From the NCBI GenBank assembly GCA_937935355.1, contig CALGYR010000109.1:403-64402 (forward strand): a stretch of 64,000 nucleotides of DNA. The letters are read 5' to 3'. This document shows positions 1,974 to 51,403 of this stretch, one piece after another. The first letter of the stretch is position 1; every line of letters begins with the position of its first letter. The notes under the pieces are model-generated. The model was not told the DNA's origin. It searched no databases and saw only the letters and a program-made list of their open reading frames with translations. A program made the position numbers and the translations under genes. The DNA is from an uncultured bacterium. GTDB lineage: Bacteria > Planctomycetota > SZUA-567 > JAKLDR01.

Positions 1974-2091
1974 CCACAGATGCACACAGATGCACACGGA
2001 TGCACACAGATGGGGGAAGGAGCATGATTGCCGCAGTATCAGCCCCAAGTCCCATCGGTGTTCATCGGTGTTCATCTGTGGCCAATGCTGG
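1974..2091. repeat. Inverted pair of tandem repeats: (CACAGATGCA)x3-4, a spacer, then (TGTTCATCGG)x2 and GTTCATCTGTGGCC.
   Basis: The two arms are approximate reverse complements, which predicts a long hairpin. Intergenic, between the PHP gene and lemA. Confidence 0.8.
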
Positions 2092-2121
2092 ACATGGCGA
2101 CCGGGAGTGAGCTGCTCCCTG

Positions 2122-2694
2122 TCAGCACACGGCCACCTGCGGCGCCTGGCGCACCAGCGCCGATTCGATCTCGAAGAACTCCGCCGGCTTGAAGTCGAAC
2201 ATCCCGGCGATGATGTTCGTGGGGATGGACTGGCAGGCGTTGTTGAGGTCGCGGACGTTGCCGTTGTAGAAGCGCCGGGCGGCCTGGATGCGGTCCTCGG
2301 TGTCGGTGAGCTCCTCCTGGAGCGCCAGGAAGTTCGAGCTGGCCTTCAGGTCCGGGTAGCGCTCGGCCACGGCGAAGAGGCTCTTCATCGAGCCCACCAG
2401 CTGGTTCTCGTCGGCGGCCTGCTCCGAGGGCCGTCCGCCCGAGGCCAGCGCCCGGGCCCGGGCCTCGACCACCCGCTGGAACAGCTCGCGCTCGTGGGCG
2501 GCGTAGCCCTTGACCGCCTCGACCAGGTTGGGGATCAGGTCGTAGCGGCGCTTGAGCTCGGTGTCGACGTTCGACCAGCTCTCGGTCACCCGGTTCCGCA
2601 GGCTGACCAGGTGGTTGTACATCAGCGCGACGGCCACGATCGGCACGATCATGCCGAGGCCGAGGATCACCAGGAAAATCATGATGGGCGCCAT
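2122..2694 (-). CDS. lemA: LemA family protein.
   Basis: N-terminal TM helix plus conserved LemA motifs ([18 protein letters not shown], ...IPTNIIAGMF). Confidence 0.9.
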   Translation of the reverse strand: MAPIMIFLVILGLGMIVPIVAVALMYNHLVSLRNRVTESWSNVDTELKRRYDLIPNLVEAVKGYAAHERELFQRVVEARARALASGGRPSEQAADENQLVGSMKSLFAVAERYPDLKASSNFLALQEELTDTEDRIQAARRFYNGNVRDLNNACQSIPTNIIAGMFDFKPAEFFEIESALVRQAPQVAVC

Positions 2695-2750
2695 GGGCGG
2701 GCTCCTTCCACCCGCAGGCTACGCGGGCAAGGCGGAAAAGCAAACCATCT

Positions 2751-2852
2751 TGGCCACAGATGAACACAGATGCACACCGATGACGACATCGTCGCCGTTG
2801 TCGTTTTCATCTGTGTCCATCTGTACTACTGACGTTGTTTTTGTTGTTGTGG
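2751..2852. repeat. Inverted pair of tandem repeats of the CACAGATG family (GGCCACAGATGAACACAGATGCACACCGATG ... TTCATCTGTGTCCATCTGTAC).
   Basis: Arms are reverse complements with a 16-nt loop. The motif GGCCACAGATGAAC recurs at 2080, 4540, 43900 and 63580. Confidence 0.8.
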
Positions 2853-2862
2853 CGCGAAGGTT

Positions 2863-4431: not shown

Positions 4432-4475
4432 GGCGTCCCTCCTCTCGGCCTGAGTGCTTTCTTTCCAAAAACACT

Positions 4476-5327: not shown

Positions 5328-6115
5328 CCTGGCTCGTCCTCCCCGGCTCCCGGCGCCCCCGCCATCGCCTTGTCCCCGAAGACTTCCCGGGCAAGGCCGC
5401 GCCAATTGGCCAGCACGTGCGCCGGGATGCGTTCGACGAAGCCGGTCAGCGCCCGTATGGCCGGGCCGAACTGCCCGGGCGCCCAGCGTTTTCCGGTGTA
5501 GACCATGACGTCCGGGCCGGCAACCTCGAAGGCCCAGCCCGGGTTGGCCAGCAGGAACTCCATCATCCGGGGATCGACCACGTCGTAGGCGAACTTGCGG
5601 TCGGAGGCCCAGACGCCGTAGTGGCGGTTGAACTCCTCGCTCTCGAAGGAGTCCCGGGGCTTGAAGGCCAGCCCCAGCCTGCGGGCCAGTCCGGCCATTT
5701 GGCGGCGGCGGTCGTCTTCGGCCGCATGGTTCAGGAATAGAAGCGCGCCGAGCATCAGAAGGAGGACTCCGCCGGCGTAGCCCGCGCCGTCGACGGGACC
5801 GGCGAGCAGACTCCAGAGCAGCCAGACGCAGCTCGCAGCGGTCGCCAGGCCCAAGAGGACGTTGAGCGCGTAGAGCCGCCTGAACTCGCGCGAACGCACG
5901 CGCAGCCAGGACGAGGCCATGCCGCGAATGCCTGCGCCGCACAGGAAAAGCAGGGTCGCGGAGCCCAGGCCAACCCAGCAGATCCGGGCCCACTCGCCGG
6001 CGCAGAAGGCCAGCCCCCCCAGGAACCGCACGTAGAAGACCGAGACCGCCAGGCCCCCGGCCGCCGCAGCGATGGCGATCGACAACAGCCTGCGGTCGTC
6101 GAGCCTCAGGCGCAT
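5324..6115 (-). CDS. Paralog B: polytopic N-terminus (about 4 TM helices) plus a truncated C-terminal family domain.
   Basis: Start MRLRLDD at 6115. It shares the DSFESEEFNRHYG ... FAYDVVDPRMMEFLLANPGW block but lacks the FDYxY ... VIRPE segment. Confidence 0.6.
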   Translation of the reverse strand: MRLRLDDRRLLSIAIAAAAGGLAVSVFYVRFLGGLAFCAGEWARICWVGLGSATLLFLCGAGIRGMASSWLRVRSREFRRLYALNVLLGLATAASCVWLLWSLLAGPVDGAGYAGGVLLLMLGALLFLNHAAEDDRRRQMAGLARRLGLAFKPRDSFESEEFNRHYGVWASDRKFAYDVVDPRMMEFLLANPGWAFEVAGPDVMVYTGKRWAPGQFGPAIRALTGFVERIPAHVLANWRGLAREVFGDKAMAGAPGAGEDEPG

Positions 6116-6900
6116 CCCGCCGGCCTCCCCGCCGCCGCATCGTCCGGAGTCGGCGCCGACGCCAGGTCCAGGAAACCGCCGAGCACCTCGAGGGCCTCCT
6201 TGAAGCGCGCCGGCTTCCAGATCCGGAGGTCGTAGATCAGCGCGTCGGAGCCGCACATCTCGATGTACCAGCCCGGGTTGGCCAGCAGGTAGCTCATCGC
6301 CTCCGGGGTCACGAACCGCCTCGCGAAGGATTCGTCCCGGCAGTACACGTAGAACCGGTCGCTGAACTCCCGGTTGGACTCGAAGTCCACGTCGTCGATG
6401 CCCAGGGACGCGGCCAGCCGGTCGTCCCAGCGCTCCGGGCGGATCACCAGGTGCGGACGCTTCTCGTCGCCGATCACCGTCAGCATCGACATGTCCTGCC
6501 GGCAACCATCGGCGGCTCTGCTGGCCTCGGCCGTGGGATCGCAAGCATCGAAGGCCAACACTTCCCGAGCTTTGAAGCGCCCGTGGATCGCTCCGCCGTC
6601 ATGGTAGTATCTGCCGTAGACTGCGACCTCAAGATCGTCGACCGGCTGCACCGGCAAGCCGAACATCCCCCGGGAGAGCCGCGCGAAGAGCAGCGGCATC
6701 TGCGCAGATCCCTCCGGCAGGAACGCGAGGGCGAGTTCCGCTGCCACGGACTGCAACTCGCGCTCCCGCCGCCTGCCGCGGCCGTCCAGGAGCCTGGCGA
6801 CGAAGGCGGCCAGCGTCGCCAGAACGAGCGGAACGCCGAAGAGCAGCCCAATCTGCGTCCAGCGGTTCAGGCGGTCGAACCACTCCAGCAGTTCAGCCAT
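6106..6900 (-). CDS. Paralog C, membrane-anchored family-domain protein.
   Basis: Start MAELLEWF at 6900, 2 bp after the upstream stop. Carries the VIRPE, DVDFES and GWYIE motifs. Confidence 0.75.
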   Translation of the reverse strand: MAELLEWFDRLNRWTQIGLLFGVPLVLATLAAFVARLLDGRGRRRERELQSVAAELALAFLPEGSAQMPLLFARLSRGMFGLPVQPVDDLEVAVYGRYYHDGGAIHGRFKAREVLAFDACDPTAEASRAADGCRQDMSMLTVIGDEKRPHLVIRPERWDDRLAASLGIDDVDFESNREFSDRFYVYCRDESFARRFVTPEAMSYLLANPGWYIEMCGSDALIYDLRIWKPARFKEALEVLGGFLDLASAPTPDDAAAGRPAGCA

Positions 6901-9431: not shown

Positions 9432-9443
9432 GGTTGGCCCTGT

Positions 9444-9492
9444 CAGACTGGTCTGACCCGTCCGACTCGTCCGACTCGTCGGACCGGCCTGC
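9444..9492. repeat. Short tandem and palindromic repeats (GTCAGACTGGTCTGAC, then (CCGACTCGT)x2, then CGGACCGG).
   Basis: Sits between htpX and lemA. Same GTCGGACC family as the repeats at 48535 and 54070. Confidence 0.6.
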
Positions 9493-18235: not shown

Positions 18236-18350
18236 AAACCACCAAGGCACCAAGACACAAAGACGACACCAAGCTCAGACAAAGTTGACGCTTGGTCCGC
18301 CTCTGCGCCTCTGTGCCTTAGTGCCTTAGTGCCTTAGTGCCTTAGTGCCT
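18236..18350. repeat. Inverted pair of tandem repeats: (CACCAAGG / CACAAAGA units), a spacer, then (GCCTTAGT)x4.
   Basis: The arms are imperfect reverse complements (GGCACCAAG versus GGCACTAAG). It ends at the mtaB stop codon. Confidence 0.75.
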
Positions 18351-19761
18351 ACAAGGTCTCCGAGCCAGCCTCGGTCACGCTGCCGATCAGGTCGGCGCCC
18401 CGGGCGCGCTCGATCCTGACGCGATGGAGCTCGCGCAGGCGCCGCTCCGCTCCGGGCGGCAGCCGGAAGCCGGTCCGCACGTAGCGCCCGGTGTAGCCGG
18501 CCGGCAGTCCGGCCAGCGTGGCGTTCTCGGCCAGCACCTCCTCGACCCGGCCGACGCAGGCGGAGGCGAAGGCCGCCGCGAGCTCCCGACCGAGGGCCCG
18601 GGCCTCGTCGGCTCGCCGGCCGGCCTCGTCGACCGGGACGCGTCCGGGCAACCCGGCGGCCGGCGTGCCCCGGCGCGGCGAGTACCGGAAGACGTGCAGC
18701 CGCGAGAGCCCCGCGCGGCGGCAGACTTCCAGGGTCCGGTCGAAGGCCGCGGCGTCCTCTCCCGGGAAGCCGACCATGACGTCGGTCGAGACCGCCGGCA
18801 GGTCGAGCCGTCCGCGGAGCTGCTCCACGGCGGCGAGGAACTCCTCCGCGCGACAGCGCCGGTTCATGGCCCGGAGCACGCCGTCGTCGCCGCTCTGCAG
18901 CGGCAGGTGGAAGTGCGGGCATACCCGGGGCTCGCCGCCGGCGAGCGCGACCAGGCGCGGCGAGAGCTCCCCGGCTTCGAGCGAGCTGACCCGCACGCGC
19001 GCGCCCGGCGCGGCCGAGAGCGTCGCCTCGACGGCGTCGGCTAGCTCCAGCCGGCCGTCCAGGTCGCGCCCGTACCACCCCAGGTGCGTGCCGCAGAGGA
19101 CGATCTCGCGGCGCCCGTCGGCGGCGAGCCGGGCGGCCTCGGCCGCCACCGCCGCGAGAGGGCGGCTCCGCGGCCGGCCGCGCAGGGCCGGCACGACGCA
19201 GTACGTGCAGCCCGCCGCGCAACCGTCCTGGACCTTCAGGAAGGCCCGCGAGTGGCCGTCGAAGCGGGTGATACCCTCCGTCGAACGCGACGATTCACCG
19301 CGGAGACGCAGAGAGCGCAGAGACGACGCGGAGAACAACGACGACGTTTCGTTGCGGAGGGACATAGTGGCAACTCCACTCCCATCCTCTCCGCGCTCAC
19401 TACGCGCCCTCTGCGTCTCTGCGGTGACTTCCGGCCAGGCCAGTTTCTCCTCCTGATTGAGCGCCAGGTCGGCTCCGCTCCGGCGCAGCGCCTCCTCGCG
19501 GCCCAGGTGGCTTACCAGACAACCGGCCACGACCAGCCGGGCGCCGGGACTGCCGCGCATCAGGAGCCGGGCGGCATCCAGGCTCTTCCTCGCCGCCGGG
19601 GCGGTCACCGCGCAACCGTTGGTCAGGCAGATGTCGGCCACCTCGCCTTCGACCGCCCGGCGGAGCCCAGCCGCCTCCAGGCGCTCGGCGAGGCACTGGC
19701 CCTCGTATTGGTTCACCTTGCAGCCCAGGCTGACTATCCGGAAGGTCTCTGGAGAGGCCAA
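18349..19761 (-). CDS. mtaB: MtaB/MiaB-family radical-SAM methylthiotransferase. It carries an in-frame insert of about 45 aa, encoded by a palindromic element, between the MTTase domain and the radical-SAM domain.
   Basis: N-terminal MTTase domain, CAAGCTYC radical-SAM Cys motif and a TRAM-like C-terminus. The ORF is uninterrupted across the palindromic element at 19296-19426. Confidence 0.85.
   Translation of the reverse strand: MASPETFRIVSLGCKVNQYEGQCLAERLEAAGLRRAVEGEVADICLTNGCAVTAPAARKSLDAARLLMRGSPGARLVVAGCLVSHLGREEALRRSGADLALNQEEKLAWPEVTAETQRARSERGEDGSGVATMSLRNETSSLFSASSLRSLRLRGESSRSTEGITRFDGHSRAFLKVQDGCAAGCTYCVVPALRGRPRSRPLAAVAAEAARLAADGRREIVLCGTHLGWYGRDLDGRLELADAVEATLSAAPGARVRVSSLEAGELSPRLVALAGGEPRVCPHFHLPLQSGDDGVLRAMNRRCRAEEFLAAVEQLRGRLDLPAVSTDVMVGFPGEDAAAFDRTLEVCRRAGLSRLHVFRYSPRRGTPAAGLPGRVPVDEAGRRADEARALGRELAAAFASACVGRVEEVLAENATLAGLPAGYTGRYVRTGFRLPPGAERRLRELHRVRIERARGADLIGSVTEAGSETL
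19296..19426. repeat. Palindromic element lying in frame inside mtaB: CACCGCGGAGACGCAGAGAGCGCAGAGACGACGCGGAG, a loop, then CTCCGCGCTCACTACGCGCCCTCTGCGTCTCTGCGGTG.
   Basis: The 38-nt arms are about 80% reverse-complementary. Same family as the element at 20622-20748. Confidence 0.8.
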
Positions 19762-19767
19762 GGCGCT

Positions 19768-20538
19768 TCAGTCCAGCGCGGGGCGGGGCGCGGCCAGGCT
19801 CAGGCCCTCGCAGAGCAGTCCGGCGGCCAGGGCCACAGCGGCGGTCTCCACGCGAAGGACATTGGTCCCGAGGGTCAGGCGCCGGAGCCGCTCGGCGCCG
19901 GCGGCCGACTCGATGGCGGCAAGGTCGCCGGCGGTAAGCCCGCCCTCCGGCCCGACGAGCGCGAGCACCCGTTCGCCGGCGGGCAGCCCTGCGAGCGCCC
20001 GGCGCGGCGGCTCCCCGCGCCGGAGTTCGAGGACGAGCACCCGCCCGAACTCCCCGGCGCGAGCGGCTATCTCGCCGGCGGCCATCGGCCCGGCCACCTG
20101 CATGAGGCTGGCCTGCCGCGACTGTTTGGCGGCGGCTTCGGCCAGGCGGCGCCAGCGCTCCACCGCGTTCTCCGAGCCGGAGCGCGGGCTGCGGCTCCAC
20201 TGCGCCGGCCAGAGCTCGGCGACGCCCAACTCGGCACACTTCTCGACCAGCCAGGACATGCGCTTGCCCCTGGGCACGGCCACGGCCAGCGTCAGCCGCC
20301 AGCCGGCCGCGACGCCGGCGGGCAGTTCCTCCAGCACCCGGCAGAGGGCCTGTTCGCCCTCGGTCCCGACGAGCTCGGCCCGCCAGGCGCGCCCGCGGCC
20401 GTCGAAGAGCTCCACCCGGTCGCCCGGTGCGGCCCGGCGCGACTGGAGCAGGTGGCGGCTCTCCTTCGCCGGGAGGGCCACCACGTCGCCGGCACCGGCG
20501 GGCGCCGGCTCGGCCAGGAAACGCCCCTGGATGCGCAT
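19768..20538 (-). CDS. rsmE: 16S rRNA (uracil1498-N3)-methyltransferase RsmE.
   Basis: Start MRIQGRF at 20538. RsmE-like PUA N-terminus and SPOUT C-terminus (LVGPEGG ... LGTNVLRVETA). Directly upstream of mtaB. Confidence 0.8.
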   Translation of the reverse strand: MRIQGRFLAEPAPAGAGDVVALPAKESRHLLQSRRAAPGDRVELFDGRGRAWRAELVGTEGEQALCRVLEELPAGVAAGWRLTLAVAVPRGKRMSWLVEKCAELGVAELWPAQWSRSPRSGSENAVERWRRLAEAAAKQSRQASLMQVAGPMAAGEIAARAGEFGRVLVLELRRGEPPRRALAGLPAGERVLALVGPEGGLTAGDLAAIESAAGAERLRRLTLGTNVLRVETAAVALAAGLLCEGLSLAAPRPALD

Positions 20539-20621
20539 GGCCCCGATGGTAAGAGCTCCGGTCCGGCGCGCAACCGAAACCGGCTCGAAGCCGGCCAACG
20601 GCCATCGCCTGAAACGCGGTT

Positions 20622-20748
20622 CACCGCCGAGACGCTGAGCCGCCGAGACAAGATACTGGCCGCGGCAGAGGGCTTTTCTCTGCAAGAGCCGTCTGTCGCG
20701 TCCATAAGCCAGCTCTGCGCCTCCGCGCCTCTGCGGTGCAGGCACCTT
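20622..20748. repeat. Palindromic element of the CACCGC-GAGACGC ... CTCTGCGGTG family.
   Basis: Lies in the divergent intergenic region between rsmE and the histidine kinase. It shares both termini with the mtaB-internal element. Confidence 0.7.
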
Positions 20749-20825
20749 CTGAAACGGCCCTGGAAGCCGCCGGGGGGGCTGTGGATAATTGCCCCTGTCC
20801 GGGTTATATTCAGTGTGGAGGGACG

Positions 20826-25134: not shown

Positions 25135-25164
25135 GCCTTGGCAATCACAGCGTGCAGCGGGGCT

Positions 25165-25345
25165 CTTCGGCTCTCCGGGAGGGGGCGCTCCGCGGTGAGG
25201 AAACGCGCAGCGTTTCCTCAGCCGGGTTTCATCTCTCGTCGGGCGCGGAAATGTGTGGCTGGCGTCGGGAATGAGATTCAAACCCTGCGGCCTGCGGCCG
25301 CATGGCTTGAATCCGTGCCCCCTCCCGGAGAGCCGAAGAGCCCCG
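25165..25345. repeat. MITE-like element with perfect 28-bp terminal inverted repeats (GGGGCTCTTCGGCTCTCCGGGAGGGGGC ... GCCCCCTCCCGGAGAGCCGAAGAGCCCC) and nested internal hairpins.
   Basis: Read directly. Internal hairpins are GAGGAAACGC-gcag-CGTTTCCTC and GATTCAAACC ... GGCTTGAATC. Intergenic, between the histidine kinase and the isomerase. Confidence 0.8.
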
Positions 25346-29198: not shown

Positions 29199-29222
29199 CA
29201 GACCCCCTCCCTGCGGGGCGAG

Positions 29223-29312
29223 CCGAACAGCCAACAACCAACAGCCAACAACCAGCAGCCAACATCATTGTTGGTTGTTGGACGTTGGTTGTTGGTTGTT
29301 GGCTGTTCGTTC
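29223..29312. repeat. Inverted tandem repeat (CAGCCAACAAC units, a loop, then GTTGTTGG units), near-perfect hairpin.
   Basis: It fills the whole gap between the hydrogenase small-subunit and large-subunit genes. Confidence 0.85.
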
Positions 29313-29318
29313 ATCTGC

Positions 29319-30089
29319 TCACTCCCGATAGAGCTCCACCCCCGGCTGGAACTCGTGGGTGGGGTAGCCGAACTCGCTGAAGCGCCGGGCGATCTCGTCC
29401 GGCGGCTGGCCCATGAGCCGGAACTGGCGGGCGAGCGCCGGGGCGTTGGGCTTCTCCATCGGCCCCCAGCAGGCGTAGCAGGCGCGGCCGTTCGACGGGC
29501 AAAGGGCACCGCAGCCGGCGTTCGTCACCGGGCCCATGCAGGGCAGGTTGTCAGAGACCAGCACGCAGGTGTTGCCGCGCATCTTGCACTCGACGCAGAC
29601 AGCGTAGGCGGCCGTGTCCGGCCGACGGCCGAGCAGGAGCCCCGAGACCACTTCGAGCACCTCTGCCTCGCCCACCGGACAGCCGCGCGCGTAGGCGTCT
29701 ACCCTGACGTAGTGGTCCACCGGCGAGGCCCGGACCGAGTGAACCGTGGAGAGGTCCCGGTAGACCCGGGCCTCGACCTCGCGCTCGTTGACCAGGTTCT
29801 TGATGGCCGGGATGCCGCCGTTGGTTGCGCAGGAGCCGATGGGCACCAGGAAGCCGCTGACGTTCCGGACGTGCTTGAGCTCGTCGGCCTGCCAGGACTC
29901 GGTGATGGTGCCCTCGATCAGGGCCAGGTCGAAGGGGCCCTCGGGGGTGCCGGCGTCGGTCTCCATACGGCCGTAGACCACCTCCACGGCCCCGAGCAGT
30001 TCGGCCACCTTGCGCTGGAAGAAGATGAGCTGGAACTGGCAGCCGGCGCAGCAGCTGTATTTGAAGATGCCCAGGCGCGGCTTCTTCAT
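29319..30089 (-). CDS. hydD: [NiFe] hydrogenase small (delta) subunit, group 3.
   Basis: Start MKKPRLG. Cys clusters CCAGC and GSCATNGG for Fe-S coordination. Confidence 0.9.
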   Translation of the reverse strand: MKKPRLGIFKYSCCAGCQFQLIFFQRKVAELLGAVEVVYGRMETDAGTPEGPFDLALIEGTITESWQADELKHVRNVSGFLVPIGSCATNGGIPAIKNLVNEREVEARVYRDLSTVHSVRASPVDHYVRVDAYARGCPVGEAEVLEVVSGLLLGRRPDTAAYAVCVECKMRGNTCVLVSDNLPCMGPVTNAGCGALCPSNGRACYACWGPMEKPNAPALARQFRLMGQPPDEIARRFSEFGYPTHEFQPGVELYRE

Positions 30090-30919: not shown

Positions 30920-30944
30920 GGGCGGGGGCCTTCACGGGGAAAGG

Positions 30945-31076
30945 CAGAAGGGAGAAAGCAGAAGGCAGAAGGACGAAGGGAGAAGGACGAGGGGCGTGGG
31001 ACAGCCCCTCCTTTTCGGTTTCTGCCTTCTGCCTTCATCCTTCTGCCTTCCCCTTCAGGTCTTCTGCCTTTTCCGT
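30945..31076. repeat. Inverted tandem repeat (GCAGAAGG units, a loop, then CCTTCTGC units).
   Basis: The right arm encodes the hydB C-terminal tail (...KAEDLKGKAEG). Confidence 0.85.
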
Positions 31077-32210: not shown

Positions 32211-32418
32211 GCCAACAGGCAACATGCCCCTCGACACACTTCCGCTCGGGGCACTGAGCATGGTCGAAGGGCAACATGAAACACTCAACATGCAATGAAT
32301 CAGTGGAAGGAGCCGATTGTCTTGATGATAGCCATCCGATCTTCGGCGGCTCATTCTCCTCTGCCCCTTGTCCCGCTCTGCGTGTTGCATGTTGCGTGTT
32401 GAATATTGCATGTTGGAC
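32211..32418. repeat. Inverted tandem repeat (CAACATGC units, then GCATGTTG units) with a roughly 75-nt loop.
   Basis: Sits between the hydB start and the stop of the GAF-protein gene. Confidence 0.75.
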
Positions 32419-33487: not shown

Positions 33488-33556
33488 AGGCTCGGGCTCC
33501 AGACCGCACTATAAACCCGGCTGGCGCCTCAGGCGATTCCCGTCAGAAACCCCTTA

Positions 33557-33728
33557 ACCACAAAGACACGAAGACACCAAGAGAACACAAAGGGAGACGG
33601 ACTGACTACCATCCGCGGCGTGGGACTCCGGCGACGTGATCGTCACCCGCCGCGCACGGTGGCTCTGCCGTTCTTCGTGTCCTCTTGGTGTCTTGGTGCC
33701 TTGGTGGTTTGGTGCTCGGTGGTTTGGG
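33557..33728. repeat. Inverted tandem repeat of the CACAAAGA/CACCAAGA family with an 80-nt loop.
   Basis: The arms are reverse complements. Sits between the GAF gene and GH130. Confidence 0.8.
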
Positions 33729-33729
33729 C

Positions 33730-34755
33730 CTACCGGCTGAACGGCTCGCAGAGCTTGAGCAGCTCGCCCACGTCGGCGGTGGCCAGGCACTCGACCGTGT
33801 CGGCCGCGCCGTAGTAGATCTTCACCTCGCCGGAGTCTTCCAGGATCATGCCGCCGGGGAAGATCACGTTGTTGCGCAATCCGCCGGAGACCTCGTACCC
33901 GGCCTCCGGGGCGATGAGCGGCCCGCGGTATAGGCCGACGACCTTCGAGGGGTCCTGGCGGTCGAGGAGCATCAGGCCCGCGCAGTAGCGCTTCTGCCAC
34001 TTCTGCTCCCAGCCGTTCTTGCCGCGGTTCTCGTCGCGGTCCACGGTGTGGATGAGGGTCAGCCAGCCCTTCTCGGTGAGCACCGGCGGGGCCGCCGGGC
34101 CGATCTTGTCGTTGGCGTAGGGCACGTCCTCGACGCCCAGGACCAGCGCGGAGTCGCCCCAGTAGCGCAGGTCCGGCGACCAGGACATCCAGACGTCGAA
34201 GCGGTCCTTGCTGCGCGCACGGCTGTAGATGGGGAAGGGCCGCTCCAGGCGCGCGTACCGGCCGCCGATCCTCTCGGGGAAGAGCACCATGTTGCGGTTG
34301 TCCGGGACGGTCAGGTGCAGCACCTCGAACTTCTCGAAGTCGTCGGTCACGGCGATGCCGCCGCGCAGGCCGTGGCGGGTGTCGAGCGCGAAGCACATGT
34401 AGACGCGCCCTTCGAGCACGGTGATGCGCGGATCGTAGGCGCGGATGACCTCGTCGTCGCGCCAGGAGAAGCAGGGCTTGGGGGCGACCTCCCACTTGAC
34501 GCCGTCGGCGCTCGTGGCCAGGCCGATGTTGGTCTCGAGTATCTTGCCGGTGACGTGCTGGTCCGGCGGGTAGACGTCGTTGCGGAAGACCATCACATAC
34601 TTGCCCCGGTACCTGGCGATGCCGGCGTTGTAGACCAGCGTCGCCGGGTAGGGCACGTCTTTAGCCGAAAGCACGGGGTTGGCCGGGTGGCGAACGACCA
34701 CCGGGCTGGACTTGAGCTCACCGATCACAGCAGGCAGTTCCCAGGCCATCTCCAT
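33730..34755 (-). CDS. GH130-family glycoside hydrolase or phosphorylase (beta-mannoside phosphorylase-like).
   Basis: Five-bladed propeller GH130-like sequence. The 313-aa alternative-frame ORF is spurious. Confidence 0.8.
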   Translation of the reverse strand: MEMAWELPAVIGELKSSPVVVRHPANPVLSAKDVPYPATLVYNAGIARYRGKYVMVFRNDVYPPDQHVTGKILETNIGLATSADGVKWEVAPKPCFSWRDDEVIRAYDPRITVLEGRVYMCFALDTRHGLRGGIAVTDDFEKFEVLHLTVPDNRNMVLFPERIGGRYARLERPFPIYSRARSKDRFDVWMSWSPDLRYWGDSALVLGVEDVPYANDKIGPAAPPVLTEKGWLTLIHTVDRDENRGKNGWEQKWQKRYCAGLMLLDRQDPSKVVGLYRGPLIAPEAGYEVSGGLRNNVIFPGGMILEDSGEVKIYYGAADTVECLATADVGELLKLCEPFSR

Positions 34756-34785
34756 CTCCCTTCGTCAACCGGGCGGGCATTCTAA

Positions 34786-34962
34786 CCACGAAGCCACAAA
34801 GACACAAAGACACAAAGACACAAAGACACGAAGGAACACGAAGGACGGCAGCGACTTTCGTGTCCGCGGCGGAAGCTTCCGAGCTCATCGACGAACGTTG
34901 CCGCGCCCATGCCCCAATCTGTTCTTGGTGATGTCTTCGTGTCTTTGTGCCTTTGTGGTTGG
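34786..34962. repeat. Inverted tandem repeat (CACAAAGA)x4, a 78-nt loop, then (TCTTTGTG) units.
   Basis: Same family as the repeat at 33557. The two together bracket the GH130 gene. Confidence 0.85.
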
Positions 34963-35025
34963 ATGGCTTCGCGCCTTTGGCGTCGCCCTGTACTTTGGGA
35001 GACGGCGGCTTAGAATCGCCGGACC

Positions 35026-37449: not shown

Positions 37450-38436
37450 TCAGCAGGCAGCCCCCGCGCCGGCCCGCGCGGTGATTTCGCGCTCGTGCAG
37501 GGCGCCGAGTCCCGGGTACATGCGCATCCCGATCCAGCGGACCAGCCGGTCGCGCAGGGTCACCCGGCCGCGGCGCAGGCAGGTCCTGACGAACTCGCCG
37601 CTGTACGAGTCGAAGTACGAGGCGTGCGGCACGCAGCGGGGGCGGCCGCGCTTGAGCACGATCCGGAGCACCTCCGGCGCGACGATGCCGGCGGCCAGGG
37701 ACATGGCCGAGGCGATGGCCGGGACGCGCTGATTCTCGAAGTCGACGTGCTCGCGGTCCATGACCGCCCCGACCGGCATGCTCCGGGGCGCGACCGCGCC
37801 GCGCAGCATGCCGATGGCCGCCCCCGCCGCCCAGGACCAGGGCATCGGCGGCAGGAGGCCCGCGCCGAAGGCCACCATGCGCTGGGCCCGGGTCATGCCC
37901 GGGACGATGCCGAAGTACTCGTCGAAGCCCATGCCCTGCGGGTCGAAGATCTGCAGCGACGCCCCGTGGCCGATGGGTGCGGAGGTCATGGCGTGGACGC
38001 CCTTCTCCCGGGCCTTCCGGAAGTAGAGGCGCCGCGCGTCGATCTGGAAGAAGTCGATGCCGTCGAGGGCCACGTCCACGTCCCGGAAGAACTCGTCGGC
38101 GTTGTCCTCGCCGAACGGCCGGGGGATGACCCGGATGCGCACCTCCGGGTTGATGGCCCGGACCATCTCGGCCATGACCTCGGCCTTGCCGCGGCCCAGC
38201 GTATGCGCGAAGGCGCCCACCTGGCGCTGGAGGTTGACCGGCTCGAAGCGGTCCGGGTCGGCGATCACGAAGCCGCCCACGCCCATGCGGGCCAGCGTCA
38301 CCAGGTAGTTTCCGCCAACCGCGCCGACGCCGGCGATGCCGACCGTCGCGCCGCGCAGCAGTTCCTGCTCGCGCTCGGCGACCATGCCGATGTTCCGGGA
38401 AGTGGCCTCGGAGTACGACCAGCCCGCCGCGCCCAT
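37450..38436 (-). CDS. ThiF/MoeB-family E1-like adenylyltransferase.
   Basis: GIAGVGAVGG Rossmann motif. The start overlaps the upstream stop (TGATG). Confidence 0.8.
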   Translation of the reverse strand: MGAAGWSYSEATSRNIGMVAEREQELLRGATVGIAGVGAVGGNYLVTLARMGVGGFVIADPDRFEPVNLQRQVGAFAHTLGRGKAEVMAEMVRAINPEVRIRVIPRPFGEDNADEFFRDVDVALDGIDFFQIDARRLYFRKAREKGVHAMTSAPIGHGASLQIFDPQGMGFDEYFGIVPGMTRAQRMVAFGAGLLPPMPWSWAAGAAIGMLRGAVAPRSMPVGAVMDREHVDFENQRVPAIASAMSLAAGIVAPEVLRIVLKRGRPRCVPHASYFDSYSGEFVRTCLRRGRVTLRDRLVRWIGMRMYPGLGALHEREITARAGAGAAC

Positions 38437-39413
38437 CAGAGCACCTCCTCGCGCCCGGCCGGGACCAGGCCGGCCCGTCGGCGCATGGCCTCGAGAGCCG
38501 CGCGCCGCTCCGGACTCTCCCCGGCCAGCAACTCCGGCCGGACGGAGAGGAAGTGGCGCAGCTCGGCCTCGCCCATCGGGCGGAGTTCCCGGGAGAGCTC
38601 GTCCACCGCCCCGGCCTCGCCGCTCTGCGGGATCCACAGGCGGTAGATGGTGCGGTGGCGCTCGGACTCGCCGATCCGGTCGGGGGTGCTCAGCGGTATC
38701 GAGCAGAGCACCGCCGGGGCCCCGCCGACCCGGTCGTAGGCGCGTTCCGGGCCGGCCTCGACGAAGAGCAGCTTGCGCCGATAAAAGCCGGCGTGGCGTG
38801 GATTGACGGTGATCACGAAGTCGGTGGCGCCGCGGATGCGGCGGGCCACGAGGTAGGCGAGGTTGAAGAGGCGAACCAACAACTCCGAGCCGGCGACGGT
38901 TTCCTCGTCGATGCCCAGGGAGACGATCTCGGCCAGGCGCCGGCCGCGCTCCCGCAGGGCGTCGAGCTCCGCGCCGAAGAGTCCGTCGGCCGGCAATCCC
39001 AGCGGCGAGTCGAAGACCACGGTGAGAGCGCCGACGGGGACGACGGCGGTGGAAGGTGGAAGGTGGAGGGTGGAAGACAAAAGGGCGGAGGCCGAACTGT
39101 CGCGATCGGCTCCTTCCACCTTCCACCCTCCACCTTCCACCAGGCGCTTTTCGGCCAGAAGCGTCACCGTGTCGGGCTGGGCGTCATGGATGGACATCCA
39201 CAGCCTCGAGGGATGCGGTCGGGCGTATTCCTTCTCAAGGTACAGGCGGTAGATCAGTCCATAGGCGCTCCGGCGGCTCGCCAGGTCGTTGGCCACGCGG
39301 ATGCGATACGCCGCCGCCGCGCCCACCGACGCGGGTCCCTCATAACCGGTGCGGGCGACATCGGGAGTTCCCTCCAGGGCCTTGAGTCTCTGGCTCAGCT
39401 TCGTGGTCTTCAT
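38436..39413 (-). CDS. FeeM-like GNAT-fold N-acyltransferase (N-acyl amino acid synthase family). It carries an in-frame insert encoded by a palindromic repeat.
   Basis: Start MKTTKL at 39413 with a GGGAGA RBS. N-terminal YRIRVANDL ... AYGLIYRLYLEKEY resembles the long-chain N-acyl amino acid synthase (Acetyltransf_5) family. The ORF continues uninterrupted through the repeat at 39049-39140. Confidence 0.5.
   Translation of the reverse strand: MKTTKLSQRLKALEGTPDVARTGYEGPASVGAAAAYRIRVANDLASRRSAYGLIYRLYLEKEYARPHPSRLWMSIHDAQPDTVTLLAEKRLVEGGGWKVEGADRDSSASALLSSTLHLPPSTAVVPVGALTVVFDSPLGLPADGLFGAELDALRERGRRLAEIVSLGIDEETVAGSELLVRLFNLAYLVARRIRGATDFVITVNPRHAGFYRRKLLFVEAGPERAYDRVGGAPAVLCSIPLSTPDRIGESERHRTIYRLWIPQSGEAGAVDELSRELRPMGEAELRHFLSVRPELLAGESPERRAALEAMRRRAGLVPAGREEVL
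39049..39140. repeat. Near-perfect palindromic element lying in frame inside the N-acyltransferase gene: (GGTGGAAG)x4, a 34-nt loop, then (CTTCCACC)x4.
   Basis: Read directly. Encodes ...VEGGGWKVEGADRDSSASALLSSTLHLPPSTAVV... within the ORF. Confidence 0.85.
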
Positions 39414-43878: not shown

Positions 43879-43921
43879 TTGGCTCTGCGTCATCCGTGTT
43901 CATCGGTGTGCATCTGTGGCC
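43879..43921. repeat. Single arm of the CACAGATG/GTTCATC repeat family (TCATCCGTGTTCATCGGTGTGCATCTGTGGCC).
   Basis: It overlaps and encodes the last 6 codons plus the stop of the heparinase-like gene. Confidence 0.7.
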
Positions 43922-46460: not shown

Positions 46461-46712
46461 TTCCGGCCCTCCAAAAAGTGGTTCCAGGCCCACCCCCACA
46501 CTTAGCTTCCGAGCCGCATCGGCGACTCGGCCTGAACCTGCGGGCATTCTAGTCATCAATCCCGGTTTGCAAATGGCTTTCGGAGCTTCTCTTGACGTTC
46601 CTTTGGAGCGCATGAAAGGTGGAAGTTCATCTGCGGCAGGCCGTCGAACGGCAAAAGCGCAATTGACGCCGCCGACTGCCGCCGTAGTCTTCTCTGCAAA
46701 GGAGGCAGCTCC

Positions 46713-47255
46713 ATGTTGACTCCCAACGATGCCGTGCTGGTGGTGGTCGACGTCCAGGGCAAGCTCGCCGGGTTGATGCACGAGGCCGCGGCGCTCTTCG
46801 AGAACGTCGCGCGGCTCGTCAGGGGTTGCCGGGCGCTCGGCGTGCCGGTCATCTGGATGGAGCAGAACCCGAAGGGCCTGGGCCCGACCGTCCCGGAGGT
46901 CGCCGCGGCCATGCCCGAGGGGCTCTCGCCCATCTCCAAGATGAGCTTCGGCTGCTGCGGCGAGCCGCGCTTCATAGCGGCGCTCGAGGCCTCCGGACGC
47001 CGGCAGGTGCTGCTCGCCGGCATCGAGGCCCACATCTGCGTCCACCAGACCGCCGTCGCGCTCAAGGCGCGCGGATACGAGGTCCACCTGGTCGCCGACG
47101 CGGTCTCCTCGCGCAAGCCCTTCAACCGCGACCTGGCCATCGCCAGGCTGGGCCGCGGCACGGCCGAGCTCACCTCGGTGGAGATGGCCCTCTTCGAGAT
47201 GCTCGGCACCGCCGAACACCCGGCGTTCCGGGAGGTCGCGAGGCTGGTTAAGTAG
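46713..47255 (+). CDS. Isochorismatase-family cysteine hydrolase.
   Basis: AGGAGG RBS. VDVQ and catalytic Cys motifs. Confidence 0.85.
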   Translation: MLTPNDAVLVVVDVQGKLAGLMHEAAALFENVARLVRGCRALGVPVIWMEQNPKGLGPTVPEVAAAMPEGLSPISKMSFGCCGEPRFIAALEASGRRQVLLAGIEAHICVHQTAVALKARGYEVHLVADAVSSRKPFNRDLAIARLGRGTAELTSVEMALFEMLGTAEHPAFREVARLVK

Positions 47256-47378
47256 CCTCCAGACATGGGCTGAAGCGCTTCGCGCCTTTCCCGCCCCCAT
47301 CGAGATTCTGGATTTCCAGCCAACTCCACAGTCCTTCCGGTGTATATAAGACCGGTCTTAGCACCATAATACCAGTCA

Positions 47379-48476: not shown

Positions 48477-48534
48477 GAAGATGACGATGCCGGGATTCCA
48501 GGCGGCTGGCGAGGGCAACTGAACGGGGGCCTGG

Positions 48535-48580
48535 GCAGTCGGACCGGTCGGACAGGTCCGACCCGTCCGACCGGTCTGAC
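48535..48580. repeat. Tandem GTCGGACC-family repeats (GGACCGGTCGGACAGGTCCGACCCGTCCGACCGGTCTGAC).
   Basis: Immediately upstream of the RBS of the gene at 48597. Confidence 0.6.
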
Positions 48581-48596
48581 AAAGGAGTTGGGACCA

Positions 48597-51272
48597 ATGA
48601 AGACAGCATCTGCCGTTCTTGCCGGCCTGATCCTCTGCGCGGCTTTCGCGGCTGGCGGTGAAGCCTCCCCGCCGCAGCGGGCGAACTTCACCGCCAAGCC
48701 CGCCGTGGCCAAGGCCGGCGACAAATTTACGATCACTTTCACGGTCGCAGGCCCCACCGACGCCGAGGTGGCCGTGCTCGACGCCGGCGGCAAGGTCGTC
48801 CGCCACCTGGCCGCCGGGATGCTCGGAGGGGAGAAGCCGCCTCCCGAGCCGCTCAAGCCGGGTCTCGCGCAGTCGCTCGAGTGGGACCTGAAGGATGACG
48901 CCGGGAAACCCGCCTCCGGCGGACCATTCAAGGTGCGCGTCAAGCTCGGGCTCAAGCCGGAGTTCGACGGCTTCCTGCTCGACAACCCGGTCGGCACCGG
49001 CTCGATCGGCGCGCTGGCTGTCGGCCCGGGCGGGCAGCTCTACATCTGGCACCACGACTGCACCGCCAACGGCAACCAGGGAGCCGAAAAGCTGAAAGTG
49101 ATCGGCCGCGACGGCAAGTACGTCCGCACGCTCATCCCTTACCCCGCCAACCTGTCACCCGAGAAGGCCAAGGTGTTGGGCGCCTTCCTCGACGACGACG
49201 GGAGCCTCGTGCCGCGGGTCTACAACATCCAGCAGCTCAACCTGAACTACGAGGGCCGCGGCGACCGCGGCCCGTCCATGATGGGCTTCTCCTGCCCGGC
49301 GGTGGATGGGAAGGGCCGGGCCTACTGGCTGGTCCGCGGCGGCCAACTGGAGTGCGTCGAGGCCGACGGCAGTTCGCCCTACGACACGTTCCTGAGCCCG
49401 CCGATCGTGGCCGGTTTCAAGGCGTTGGTCGGCCGCCCGGCGCTGTGCCCCGCCTCGGATGACAAGGGCCTCTACGTCTCCGGTCTGGGCGCGGCCGACG
49501 ACAGCTGGGGCAAGAACTCACGGGCGCTGCCCGCCGTCTGGCTGATCGACACGGCCACGCGCAAGGCCGAGGTCTTCGTCGGCAACCTCGAGGAGACCGG
49601 TAAGGAGAAGGACCGCCTGACCGCGCCGCGCGGCGTGGCCGCGGCCAAGGGGCTGCTCTACGTGGCCGACCCCGGAGCGGACCGCGTGGCGGTCTTCAAG
49701 GAGGCCGACCGCTCCTTCGCCGGCGAGATCAAGGTGAAGGACCCGCAGAGCATCGGCGTCGACCCGGCCACCGGTGCAGTGTACGTCTGCGCCTACACCG
49801 GCAAGGGGACCGCCGACCTCATCAAATTCGAGAAGTACGACACCGGCAAGGAGCTCTACAGGATCGCCCTGCCCAAGACCGGGCTCTCTCCCAACGGCGG
49901 GGTCCACCGGATCGCGGTCGATGCCTCGGCCAAGCCCGTGCTGGTCTACGTCCCGGGGCTGCCCTACGGCCCGCCCTTCACCCGCATCGAGGACGCCGGC
50001 GACAAGTTCCAGATCACGGCCGACCCGCGCGACCTCAAGCGCGCCTGGGCGCCCGGGCCCCGCGACCTGACGTTCGACCGCGCCCGCGGCGAGCTCTACG
50101 TCAAGGGCGGCTCGGACCAGCGCTACTTCCGGGTCGAGGAGAAGACCGGCAAGGTCACCGAGCTCGTCAAGATCGCCGGCGGCGGGGCCGCGGGCAGCCA
50201 GCTGGTGGCCTCGCCGGACGGCAGCCTGGTGATCTACGGCTGGGGGGAGATGGGTCTGCGCCACCTCGACCGCGACGGCAAGCCGCTCAACTGGCCGGGA
50301 CGGGACACCAACGCGATCAAGTACAGCGGGATCATGACCTTCATGCAGCGCTACATGGCGCTGCCCAGGGACGACGAGATATTCATCATCCTGCCGCCGG
50401 AATACCGCAAGAACCCCAAGTCGAGCGGCGGCGACTACAGCTCGGTCAACGTCCTGGGCACAGACGGCGGGACCAAGCGCACGGTCATCTGGCAGTGCAC
50501 CGCCGGGGCGGTCCTGCGGGTCGACGCCAGGGGCAACATCTACCTCGCCGAGATGCTGAAGCCCGCCGGCCGGCTCTATCCGGAGTTCTTCGACGGGAAG
50601 ATCGGGAAGATCCCCAGGGGCAAGTCGGTGGGCGGCCTGAGCGGCAACCCCGAGGGGGCCGCCGCATTCTGGGAAAGCAACATGTACGGCAGCATCGTCA
50701 AGTTCCCGCCGTCGGGCGGGGTCATCTGGTACAACAAGGACCTGCCCCACGGCGTGGAGGGCGCTCCGCCGGCCGAGCTCCTGGCCAAGCCCAAGCTCAC
50801 CTTCGACACGCACATCGGCTACGGCTACAAGCCGGTCGAGGTGCAGGGCGCCGAGTGGGTGCGCTTCGGCTTCTCGCCCTACGGCGTGACCCGCGGCGCC
50901 GGCTTCTGCATGTGCGAGGGCGCCGGCTTCGACGTCGACGGCTACGGGCGCGTCTTCTACCCGAACCTCGGCCAGTTCCGGATCGAGGTCGTGGACAACG
51001 CCAACAACAGGATCGGGACGTTCGGCAAGTACGGCAACCAGGACGACGGCGGGGCGGGGGACGGGGGGCGAGGGGCGAGCGGGAAAGGGAAGAGCGAGGG
51101 CGCCGATTCAGGGACCCGCACCTCGCCCCCCGCACCCCGCTCCATTCCATTGGCCTGGCCGACCTACGTGGCCGTCTCCGACGACTACGCCTACGTCAAC
51201 GACACGCTCGCCAACCGCGTGGTCCGGGTGAAGCTCGGCGCGGCTGCGGAGGAGAGTTGTGAGGTGAAGTAG
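48597..51272 (+). CDS. Secreted 891-aa beta-propeller repeat protein (NHL-like repeats).
   Basis: ATG 9 nt after an AAAGGAG RBS. Signal peptide. Repeats of the YVADPGADRVAVF type. Tandem paralog of the gene at 51328. Confidence 0.7.
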   Translation: MKTASAVLAGLILCAAFAAGGEASPPQRANFTAKPAVAKAGDKFTITFTVAGPTDAEVAVLDAGGKVVRHLAAGMLGGEKPPPEPLKPGLAQSLEWDLKDDAGKPASGGPFKVRVKLGLKPEFDGFLLDNPVGTGSIGALAVGPGGQLYIWHHDCTANGNQGAEKLKVIGRDGKYVRTLIPYPANLSPEKAKVLGAFLDDDGSLVPRVYNIQQLNLNYEGRGDRGPSMMGFSCPAVDGKGRAYWLVRGGQLECVEADGSSPYDTFLSPPIVAGFKALVGRPALCPASDDKGLYVSGLGAADDSWGKNSRALPAVWLIDTATRKAEVFVGNLEETGKEKDRLTAPRGVAAAKGLLYVADPGADRVAVFKEADRSFAGEIKVKDPQSIGVDPATGAVYVCAYTGKGTADLIKFEKYDTGKELYRIALPKTGLSPNGGVHRIAVDASAKPVLVYVPGLPYGPPFTRIEDAGDKFQITADPRDLKRAWAPGPRDLTFDRARGELYVKGGSDQRYFRVEEKTGKVTELVKIAGGGAAGSQLVASPDGSLVIYGWGEMGLRHLDRDGKPLNWPGRDTNAIKYSGIMTFMQRYMALPRDDEIFIILPPEYRKNPKSSGGDYSSVNVLGTDGGTKRTVIWQCTAGAVLRVDARGNIYLAEMLKPAGRLYPEFFDGKIGKIPRGKSVGGLSGNPEGAAAFWESNMYGSIVKFPPSGGVIWYNKDLPHGVEGAPPAELLAKPKLTFDTHIGYGYKPVEVQGAEWVRFGFSPYGVTRGAGFCMCEGAGFDVDGYGRVFYPNLGQFRIEVVDNANNRIGTFGKYGNQDDGGAGDGGRGASGKGKSEGADSGTRTSPPAPRSIPLAWPTYVAVSDDYAYVNDTLANRVVRVKLGAAAEESCEVK

Positions 51273-51403
51273 GGACTGAGGTACTAAGGTACTAAGGGAC
51301 TAAGGCACTGAGTGAACGGAGAACAGCATGGCAACCGAATTGGCGAGTCCGGCAGCGCGTGCAAAGCACACTAAGTGCCTGAGTGCCTTAGTGCCTCAGT
51401 GCC
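51272..51403. repeat. Inverted tandem repeat (GGACTAAG/GTACTAAG units, a loop, then GCCTTAGT/GCCTCAGT units).
   Basis: The right arm encodes the hydrophobic core of the signal peptide of the gene at 51328 (HTKCLSALVPQCLLLL). Confidence 0.8.

Follow-up and report, generated by a model that had tools for sequence, protein, structure and literature searches.

Tandem-repeat-armed hairpins in 64 kb of Planctomycetota DNA as probable cargo-less relatives of GxxExxY gene cassettes

The DNA considered here, called the window throughout, is a stretch of 64,000 nucleotides (nt; positions 403 to 64,402 of contig CALGYR010000109.1) from a metagenome-assembled genome of an uncultured bacterium, with 69.4% G+C and with its nearest protein relatives in Planctomycetota metagenome-assembled genomes. 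Among and within its genes, including those of a group 3 hydrogenase operon (GAF-HydB-HydG-HydD-HydA), MtaB, RsmE and FeeM, lie numerous hairpins in which one arm is made of tandem copies of a short unit and the other of tandem copies of its reverse complement. With a probability put at roughly 0.6, these hairpins are taken to be cargo-less members, akin to miniature inverted-repeat transposable elements (MITEs), of an apparently unnamed foldback class that resembles the intervening sequences (IVS) of 23S rRNA. Full-length relatives in this class carry a gene for a GxxExxY protein in the loop, between the same repeat-built arms.

Hairpin elements of the window

With an array detector set to periods of 7-11 nt, at least 3 copies and at least 85% self-match, 23 short-period tandem arrays were found in the window, as against 0.81 +/- 1.14 in 100 dinucleotide shuffles, and 18 of the 23 have a reverse-complement partner (at least 14 of 16 positions) no more than 200 nt away, where 0.01 would be expected. 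Tandem Repeats Finder combined with an inverted-repeat tool called the same sites. The tally comes to 14 clear hairpins of 45-205 nt, one array that is partly self-complementary, and four solo arrays (Table 1). In stability the 14 hairpins far exceed shuffled sequence, and do so to much the same degree on either strand (fold z-scores -3.9 to -14.5); in a dinucleotide-shuffle control the scores were -4.9 to -10.9 for RNA and -4.1 to -10.9 for DNA, and 0 of 200 shuffles were equally stable. The solo arrays E1, E2, E15 and E19, having no partner arm, have z about 0.

A preliminary description of the window had proposed some 20 dense hairpins sharing an architecture rather than a sequence, and the density, the stable stems and the common plan of inverted tandem arms around unrelated loops are all borne out by these counts and folds. 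Clear hairpins number 14; the sites that had been given at 43879 and 63535, like those at 119-190 and 948-1016, are solo arrays. The dimensions first given were too narrow: unit periods are 7, 8, 9 and 10 nt rather than 8-10, with 7, 8 and 9 equally common (E2, E9, E10, E11, E14 and E18 have period 7), and loops run from 2-4 nt up to about 110 nt rather than from 15. Nor is almost every intergenic gap filled, as had been thought; on an approximate gene map drawn from Pfam scans, about 18 gaps among some 30 with a length of 40 nt or more contain an array or hairpin, mostly gaps between co-directional genes.

Table 1. Arrays and hairpins of the window, with positions counted from its first letter and z giving the fold score against shuffles
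Element	Position	Structure	Setting	z
E1	119..190	solo: CTTCAGGG x4.5, then CTTCCCGA and TTCCAGAGCG units	convergent gap	-0.4/+1.1
E2	948..1016	solo, 9.7 heptamers GGGGCT(A/C)G	flanked by two minus-strand genes	+1.4/+4.9
E3	1973..2084	hairpin CACAGATGCA x4 / loop / CATCGGTGTT x3; termini GCCACAG...CTGTGGC	between LemA stop and PHP-gene start	-5.2 RNA, -4.1 DNA
E4	2755..2825	CACAGATG-family hairpin, period 10		-5.2/-5.8
E5	9442..9485	GTCCGACNN x4.8, partly self-complementary (GTCCGAC/GTCGGAC)	gap from M48 start to LemA stop	-1.3/-3.1
E6	18240..18352	hairpin CACCAAGR/CACAAAGA ... GCCTCTG/GCCTTAGT x4	abuts MtaB stop codon	
E7	19295..19427	hairpin TCACCGCGGAGACGCAGAGA...TCTCTGCGGTGA	in frame within MtaB	-8.3 RNA, -9.0 DNA
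E8	20622..20739	hairpin, family and termini those of E7	divergent gap between RsmE start (~20500, minus) and PAS-kinase start (~20815-20857, plus)	
possible member	25158..25345	perfect 29-nt inverted arms, each with GGCTCTTC GGCTCTCC; 130-nt interior	gap between PAS kinase and next gene	
E9	29215..29325	hairpin, CAACAGC/CAACAAC heptamers, 4-nt loop	HydD stop/HydA start gap	-10.8 RNA, -10.9 DNA
E10	30937..31074	hairpin, GGCAGAA heptamers	HydB/HydG junction	-8.3
E11	32211..32415	hairpin, CAACATG/CAACACG heptamers	GAF stop/HydB start gap	
E12	33556..33731	hairpin CCACAAAGACACGAAGACACCAAGA...TCTTGGTG x4...GGTGGTT	GAF start/GH130 stop gap	-6.0/-8.3
E13	34781..34977	hairpin CACAAAGA x5.9 / 103-nt loop / TGTCTTTG x3	upstream of GH130	-6.4/-7.2
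E14	39045..39142	hairpin GGTGGAA x4 / loop / TTCCACC x4	in frame within FeeM	-7.3
E15	43886..43920	solo right-arm array CATCCGTGTTCATCGGTGTGCATCTGTGGCC	overlaps stop of heparinase-like gene	-0.5
E16	48538..48580	GTCGGACNN x2 then GTCCGACNN x2, 2-3 nt loop	directly 5' of ribosome-binding site of first NHL gene	-5.9
E17	51271..51406	hairpin (G/T)ACTAAGG x4.9 / loop / AGTGCCT(C/T) x4	between two NHL paralogues	-5.8
E18	60268..60312	small hairpin, GTCAGGN heptamers, G/T-rich arm first	convergent gap	-4.9
E19	63527..63640	solo arrays CGCAGATGAA x2.7 and CCACAGATGGATACAGATACGACAGAGACAGG, plus short unrelated hairpin		+0.4

Insertion relative to orthologous loci

The hydrogenase operon was compared with those of three relatives, L205, L206 and L207, whose HydG proteins are 56-60% identical to that of the window. 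The order GAF-HydB-HydG-HydD-HydA is conserved in all three, and every junction there is free of arrays. Between GAF and HydB there are 73, 22 and 36 nt in L205, L206 and L207, respectively, and 287 nt, with E11, in the window; HydB and HydG overlap by 4 nt (ATGA) in each of the relatives and stand 115 nt apart, with E10, in the window; and the distance from HydD to HydA is 60, -4 and -1 nt in the relatives and about 120 nt, with E9, in the window. The remaining junction, HydG to HydD, measures 85, 24 and 43 nt in the relatives and is a 10-nt overlap in the window. The statement that all three gaps of the operon are occupied accordingly holds for the two internal gaps and the GAF/HydB gap, and not for HydG/HydD, where the genes overlap. 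Such a comparison at orthologous gaps had been suggested beforehand, and it yielded array-free junctions exactly where the window has E9, E10 and E11. Relative to orthologous loci, the window hairpins are lineage-specific insertions.

A related locus with MtaB 65% identical (L007) carries a complete cassette, in which a GxxExxY gene stands between RsmE and MtaB with arms TCTCACCGCAGAGCCGCAGAGGACGCAGAGAG and ...GGCGGCTCTGCGGTGAAAAG; its unit family and termini are those of E7 and E8, and both the tail of RsmE and the start codon of MtaB are read from the cassette arms. In the relative L001, in the window and in L208 from a close strain, all without the cassette, the two genes abut or overlap.

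The elements are not purely intergenic. Those given in the preliminary description at 19296 and 39049 (E7 and E14) lie in frame within genes: E7 adds about 45 residues to the MtaB linker between the UPF0004 and radical-SAM domains, a segment that most homologs are without, and E14 stands within the FeeM domain, translated as LVEGGGWKVEG...STLHLPPST. From E10 come the final 12 codons and the stop codon of HydB, which is homologous to its relatives as far as "...EIRR" and then ends in the tail EKAEDLKGKAEG, read from the E10 arm. The right arm of E17 overlaps the 5' end of the longest open reading frame (ORF) of the second NHL gene (ATG 51328), and use of that start would make it part of the translated sequence.

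The same place in the MtaB linker holds a different in-frame repeat in L007 (2110-2255), where the palindrome AAAAGGTGTC(A/T)GACACCTTTT occurs three times and is translated as KRCQTPF, KRCLTPF and KVPDTFF; the linker appears to be a hot spot tolerant of several kinds of palindromic insertion. Long frames without stops run through E7, E8 and E14 (19084-25134 on the plus strand, 19768-21225 and 37450-39126 on the minus strand), and an inflated frame of 2016 residues spans both E7 and E8, the true PAS-kinase part beginning near 20815-20857. In L001 (12527-14147) a RarA/MgsA-like gene, as called, passes through tandem-array elements at both ends, those on the 3' side being CAGGTTT/ACACCTG and those on the 5' side arrays of GGGTTGC, GGAACTC and TCGGGNC; this gene has been called as 464, 484, 523 or 535 residues across assemblies.

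Shared units and the GxxExxY cargo

For the 24-base pattern CACAGATGNNCACAGATGNNCACAGATG, chance would give about 0.004 occurrences in the genome collection; at least 117 stretches match it, and among the matches listed are members of the Cyanobacteria (complete genomes of cultured Scytonema), Acidobacteriota, Verrucomicrobiota, Planctomycetota, Chloroflexota, Bacteroidota, NC10, Latescibacterota, Cloacimonadota and several classes of Proteobacteria. The same class is present in many bacterial phyla and is not, as might have been supposed at the outset, special to this genome. The usual form of the CACAGATG family is aaC-CACAGATG-nn-CACAGATG ... CATCTGTG-nn-CATCTGTGG-tt, and the polarity CACAGATG...CATCTGTG outnumbers the opposite one by 61:1. 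Loops are unrelated between elements of one family, with a median length of 70 nt and a tail of long loops at 360-440 nt, the size of a GxxExxY gene. The window families CACCAAGG, CGCAGAGA, CACAAAGA and CCCCTAG also occur in loci that bear CACAGATG.

The interior of the long-loop copies encodes a GxxExxY protein (TIGR04256, Pfam PDDEXK_3) of about 120 residues, belonging to the PD-(D/E)XK nuclease superfamily. For a view from the side of the gene, 80 metagenome loci were taken by the GxxExxY protein core alone, with a three-sequence alignment as query (a six-sequence alignment was dropped as too divergent for locus search), and 68 of these loci have both flanks. Inverted flanks (at least 15 of 18 positions) are present at 50 of the 68 genes, or 74%, as against 1.6% of 668 control positions, and strict tandem periodicity occurs upstream of 25% of them, compared with 1.0% of controls. 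The arrays adjoining these genes have period 10 in 33 of 39 cases, the final 5'-arm unit often contributes the ATG (proteins then begin with MNTD..., for example), and similarity of the proteins is correlated with similarity of the arms (Mantel r 0.27, a value reached by 0 of 2000 permutations). No other recurrent cargo was seen, the only other "family" beside arrays being an antisense frame of GxxExxY, and no convincing ORF was found in long interiors that are without GxxExxY. In two of the window families, units and termini alike are those of arms found around GxxExxY genes.

Some arrays of the CACAGATG family occur in more complex settings. Single-arm arrays are nested in the loop of the palindrome TAGACCTCTTGCA...TGCAAGAGGTCTA in a metagenome-assembled genome of an uncultured low-G+C bacterium (L009, L024, L038, L065) and in that of another palindrome, AGACTTCTTGCA..., in Scytonema (L016, L039, L045). 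At L034, two CACAGATG-armed elements (2436-2850 and 5956-6400) have interiors of about 380-400 nt without a convincing ORF; both share the palindrome CATAACCCAAAAATGGACTAAAAAT...ATTTTTAGTCCATTTTTGGGTTATGCA, perhaps as a nested element or as cargo that does not code for protein.

Change in arms and loops

Over up to 21 kb, six independent assemblies of one relative (L001-L006) are free of substitutions, and their sole difference is one 7-nt unit lost from one hairpin arm; unit number changes by slippage, and does so faster than point mutation. A larger distance is covered by a close strain (contigs L208 and L209), which is 92-95% identical to the window and was assembled independently. There E7 has unchanged length and 3 substitutions, and E10 has kept its outer arms around a loop that cannot be aligned. 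At E6 and E8 the sites and flanks are kept, the interiors are unalignable, and all units in both arms have been replaced: GCACTAAG in the window versus GCACAGAG in the close strain at E6, where the four GCACTAAG units are 100% identical among themselves, and CGCAGAGG/CGCGGAGG versus CACAGAGG/CACGGAGG at E8. A 45-nt hairpin nested in the right arm of E11 in the window (about 32222-32266) is missing from L209, which marks it as a recent insertion into E11.

An E14-type insertion occupies the same position in 22 of 51 FeeM homologs, and on the FeeM tree its carriers are interleaved with homologs that have just a turn of 1-3 residues there. The hairpin is kept at the DNA level in homologs that are 55-59% identical (z about -7), and a switch of unit, from GGTGGAA/TTCCACC to GGCTGAA/TTCAGCC, is fully compensated. 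At E6, E8 and FeeM alike, the arms have thus changed in sequence without losing complementarity; turnover is fastest in the loops. The units once listed as unrelated one-off families are better seen as interconverting at orthologous sites, GCACTAAG to GCACAGAG, CGCAGAGG to CACAGAGG and GGTGGAA to GGCTGAA. The insertion of one distant FeeM homolog (L213:4001-4978), with unit GGCTGAA and arms CTGAAGG/CCTTCAG, has a unit close to the reverse complement of the E1 unit CTTCAGGG (window 119-155), so that even "one-off" units recur elsewhere.

Where the arms of E6, E4, E13 and E17 mismatch, the mismatch is G.U on the transcribed strand and A.C on the other. Through such G.U pairs E6 folds at -60.5 kcal/mol on the sense (minus) strand, compared with -37.8 kcal/mol on the other.

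Other features of the window

The perfect inverted arms at 25158-25345 may represent a young member of the class. A perfect 33-nt inverted repeat at 54116-54196 (AGAGCTTCCGGAAGGAACCTCGGGACGGGCCTG, 15-nt loop), 56 nt past the stop of the second NHL gene, has no tandem units and may be another type of hairpin or a terminator. The repeat of period 15/30 nt at 62492-62555 (TTCTTCTCGTCCGGC) lies inside a minus-strand ORF of 358 residues and looks like low complexity at the protein level rather than a hairpin element. Adjacent paralogue pairs are common in the window (two PcRGLX-like, two NHL-repeat and two Kelch genes), GntR/LacI-type regulators and LemA each occur twice, one LemA beside an M48 peptidase, and hairpin elements often stand between or beside members of these recurring pairs.

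Interpretation and alternatives

If the window hairpins are cargo-less members of the foldback class, the copies would have entered the lineage by insertion at gene boundaries, and two of them would have landed in linkers or surface loops of proteins, with the result that their arms are translated. Once they are in place, a variant unit can replace all units in both arms with complementarity kept. The elements are presumably mobile as units, and the GxxExxY protein may take part in that mobility by acting, in cis or in trans, on DNA hairpins or cruciforms. By analogy with the 23S rRNA IVS, RNase III would cut transcripts in the long double-stranded stem and, if it does, the elements in operons would serve for processing or uncoupling and not for termination; mRNA processing or stabilisation is a possible consequence of the hairpins. 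Among the four roles suggested in the preliminary description, a MITE family with re-templated arms is the best supported, by the insertions, the termini shared with cassettes and the concerted change of units. A much wider proposal is tentative, and on balance doubted: that the hairpins, the GxxExxY cassettes, the 23S rRNA IVS and some cyanobacterial and other short-unit arrays make up one undescribed mobile foldback superfamily, whose movement or maintenance would depend on GxxExxY at hairpin or cruciform DNA and whose arms would be templated on each other.

Several observations weigh against the cargo-less reading. There is no GxxExxY gene within the 64 kb; the direct link to this cargo is confined to the 9-10-nt families and the CGCAGAGR family, the 7-8-nt families of the window being tied to it by architecture, co-occurrence, interconversion at orthologous sites and the heptamers of the Coxiella IVS; and 26% of the sampled GxxExxY genes have no inverted flanks. 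GxxExxY is found on 8 of 72,556 plasmids, all predicted to be non-mobilizable, with no enclosing arms around the two plasmid copies inspected, and on no phage in the phage collection searched. It is no known transposase, its function being listed as unknown (PMC3424549), and taken together with its rarity on plasmids and absence from phage this leaves neither a catalyst nor a transfer route established. Structure and defence libraries gave no solved structure and just a faint Cas4-like similarity, and the literature mentions the family in passing only. No target-site duplication was seen at the HydB/HydG, RsmE/MtaB or MtaB-linker sites, where the empty sites come from relatives only 56-70% identical, so that a short duplication could be hidden. 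Finally, the retention of the FeeM hairpin at 55-59% identity and the sense-strand fold, stabler than its counterpart in 11 of the 13 window elements compared (p 0.022), hint at selection on structure, and a purely selfish element requires neither. The strand bias is suggestive of RNA-level selection or of a transcription-linked C-to-T bias, and near GxxExxY genes it is weak, at 41 vs 27 (p 0.06).

These last points belong to a rival account in which the hairpins are RNA elements selected by the host, for processing, stabilisation or the uncoupling of translation or operons, with GxxExxY genes as passengers in their loops or users of their stems. Complementarity that survives complete replacement of the units would be expected on this account, as would G.U mismatches on the sense strand and the placing of most elements between co-directional genes, and RNase III does cut the analogous IVS stem (PMC4990558). 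It is nevertheless considered unlikely: the orthologous junctions function hairpin-free, as overlaps of 4 nt, in three relatives; E8 sits in a divergent gap, and two elements are in coding sequence, where cutting of the mRNA would harm; the two strands fold nearly equally, and the strand bias, besides being weak at GxxExxY genes, has its mutational alternative. The co-divergence of gene and arms is also easier to reconcile with a single unit than with genes settling in loops at random. An explanation with no mobility at all would make the hairpins by-products of mutation, with slippage growing the units, template switching within a strand mirroring the arms, and convergence producing the likeness across phyla. 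Unit-sized indels are indeed the fastest change seen, the four identical GCACTAAG units of E6 facing GCACAGAG in the close strain are in keeping with such a process, no target-site duplications are visible, and loops of the same family are unrelated. Yet an identical 8-mer, a 10-nt period, AAC-CAC...GTG-GTT termini and a 61:1 polarity recur in many phyla, and whole cassettes stand at junctions that are overlaps of 4-7 nt in relatives, where there was no prior hairpin to grow from; with so strong an association with one protein family (74% vs 1.6%), this explanation seems improbable.

The arrays might instead be DNA binding sites, set about one helical turn apart and inverted for a dimer, of a protein of the nucleoid, of replication or of recombination, a reading that would account for period 10 as the commonest, for conservation of units across phyla, and for solo arrays (E1, E2, E15 and E19 in the window and 36 of 98 arrays in the survey that gave the 61:1 polarity). 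In the window, however, periods 7, 8 and 9 are equally common, the elements are missing at orthologous sites of relatives, and the unit sequence is free to change while the arms remain complementary, which points to pairing rather than sequence readout; binding sites are accordingly given little credence. Artefacts of assembly or sequencing deserve mention because the window comes from a metagenome-assembled genome and repeats and hairpins are error-prone for assemblers, and the preliminary description had named them as a hazard to its own proposal. They can be dismissed almost entirely: the same elements occur at the same sites in the independent assembly L208 and L209 of the related strain, the MtaB and HydG proteins are on record from two contigs and several sources, arrays are present in complete genomes of cultured cyanobacteria, and the MtaB and FeeM frames are preserved through the elements.

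Other identities were tried and set aside. Intrinsic terminators, first suggested in a form without U-tracts, are not supported as the primary role: 5 terminator-like sites were found against 4.9 expected in 27-40 kb, none of them at the base of an element; U-tracts are missing; E8 is in a divergent gap, in which transcripts do not end, and E7 and E14 are inside genes; and relatives do without the hairpins. A CsrA decoy is rejected on account of the units, most of which read CAGATG and not GGA, and no feature in the sequence supports DnaA boxes, attC sites or Rho utilisation. A scan of the whole window at Rfam gathering thresholds gave no match and no rRNA.

The cargo-less foldback reading, should it hold, could bring together an orphan family for which the NCBI annotation is just "GxxExxY protein", rRNA intervening sequences and the short arrays found across phyla, and the material for pursuing it is in hand in the form of cognate pairs of arm and protein, filled and empty sites, and a fast clock of unit slippage. 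There are practical consequences as well. The elements create spurious long ORFs, add translated segments to MtaB and FeeM, and shift start or stop codons (in HydB, and in RsmE and MtaB of L007), which makes them a hazard for annotation; assembly and long-read sequencing are likewise put at risk by such densely placed stems of -50 to -90 kcal/mol. In operons such as that of the group 3 hydrogenase they break translational coupling, which should alter subunit stoichiometry or mRNA processing.

Comparison with known systems

In the literature searched, no description was found of hairpins armed with tandem arrays as a class, or of their link to GxxExxY, and searches on the unit sequences, the spurious translations and prokaryotic foldback elements returned primers or unrelated work only. 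The preliminary description was right to separate the elements from clustered regularly interspaced short palindromic repeats (CRISPR): the units are 7-10 nt long, head-to-tail and without spacers, and Pfam scans of the window gave no cas domains. Integron attC sites are rejected too, with no integrase domain in the Pfam scans and with flanking genes that are those of conserved operons, not cassettes; the AAC...GTT at the ends of the CACAGATG family belongs to the repeat unit, as distinct from the attC core RYYYAAC...GTTRRRY.

The foldback (FB) elements of Drosophila have long inverted arms of tandem short repeats around a variable middle, and as in the window their architecture is conserved beyond the sequence; being eukaryotic, of kilobase scale and evolutionarily unrelated, they offer an analogy only. 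Some copies of the Rickettsia palindromic elements lie in frame in protein genes and are translated, as are E7 and E14. The short tandemly repeated repetitive sequences (STRR) of cyanobacteria are direct tandem copies of heptamers in intergenic DNA. Tandem heptamers are also known as the TAACTGA repeats of Beggiatoaceae, Cyanobacteria and Bacteroidetes, distant phyla for whose sharing there was "no mechanism evident", with 169 direct sets against 1 inverted set in a Beggiatoaceae genome (PMC4679880). Tandem 7-nt units, which define both groups when intergenic, are found in E2, E9, E10, E11, E14 and E18, and placement beside start codons is a further likeness to TAACTGA. Neither group, however, has been described as paired hairpin arms or as flanking genes, and inverted pairing and periods of 8-10 nt lie outside their definition.

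Repetitive extragenic palindromic (REP) sequences and their REP-associated tyrosine transposases (RAYTs), together called REPtrons, offer a closer parallel: many short palindromes outside genes, a few of which flank a small nuclease-type gene in inverted orientation, the non-autonomous copies being dense in the intergenic gaps of operons (PMC3733652, PMC3116915). REPs are single palindromes of 20-40 nt with a GTAG/CGTC tag, their enzyme being a Y1 transposase of the IS200/IS605 type, whereas the window arms are tandem units of 7-10 nt without a tag and the associated gene is of the PD-(D/E)XK superfamily. The early judgement that the elements are not REPs agrees with this, as the 5' ends GCCACAG, ACCACCAAG, TTCACCGC, CGAACAGCC, GGGAAAGGC, AACCACAAAG and GGCGGTGGAAG show no GTAG/CGTC tag, which also disposes of the composite forms BIME and REPIN, and Pfam scans of the window ORFs revealed no RAYT (IS200/IS605 Y1 transposase) domain. 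With MITEs the elements share small size, terminal inverted repeats, lack of coding capacity and multiple copies; they differ in having a common architecture and unit motifs rather than a full-length consensus, with no visible target-site duplication and no known transposase partner. The partners with the same ends as the window elements encode GxxExxY, a protein without demonstrated transposase activity.

The closest described relative is the 23S rRNA IVS. That of Coxiella burnetii is a selfish stem-loop of 428 nt with a 28-bp terminal stem and an S23p ORF, in which GACAGAT is repeated three times just 5' of the ATG of the small ORF, with the copy number differing among strains (3 versus 2); cleavage by RNase III takes place in the stem, at the first repeat, and the origin of the IVS, left unexplained, was suggested by the authors to be a remnant mobile element (PMC4990558). 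The differences are of place, definition and cargo: IVS sit in helices 9, 25 and 45 of 23S rRNA, are defined also by excision by RNase III, and encode S23p, a four-helix-bundle protein, whereas the window elements lie between and inside protein genes and carry no ORF, and the cargo of their class is GxxExxY. The likenesses lie in the build of the elements. Both are small stem-loops whose terminal inverted repeats form a long stem, the Coxiella GACAGAT shares an ACAGAT core with CACAGATG, and its tandem units stand beside the ATG just as they do in the GxxExxY cassettes.

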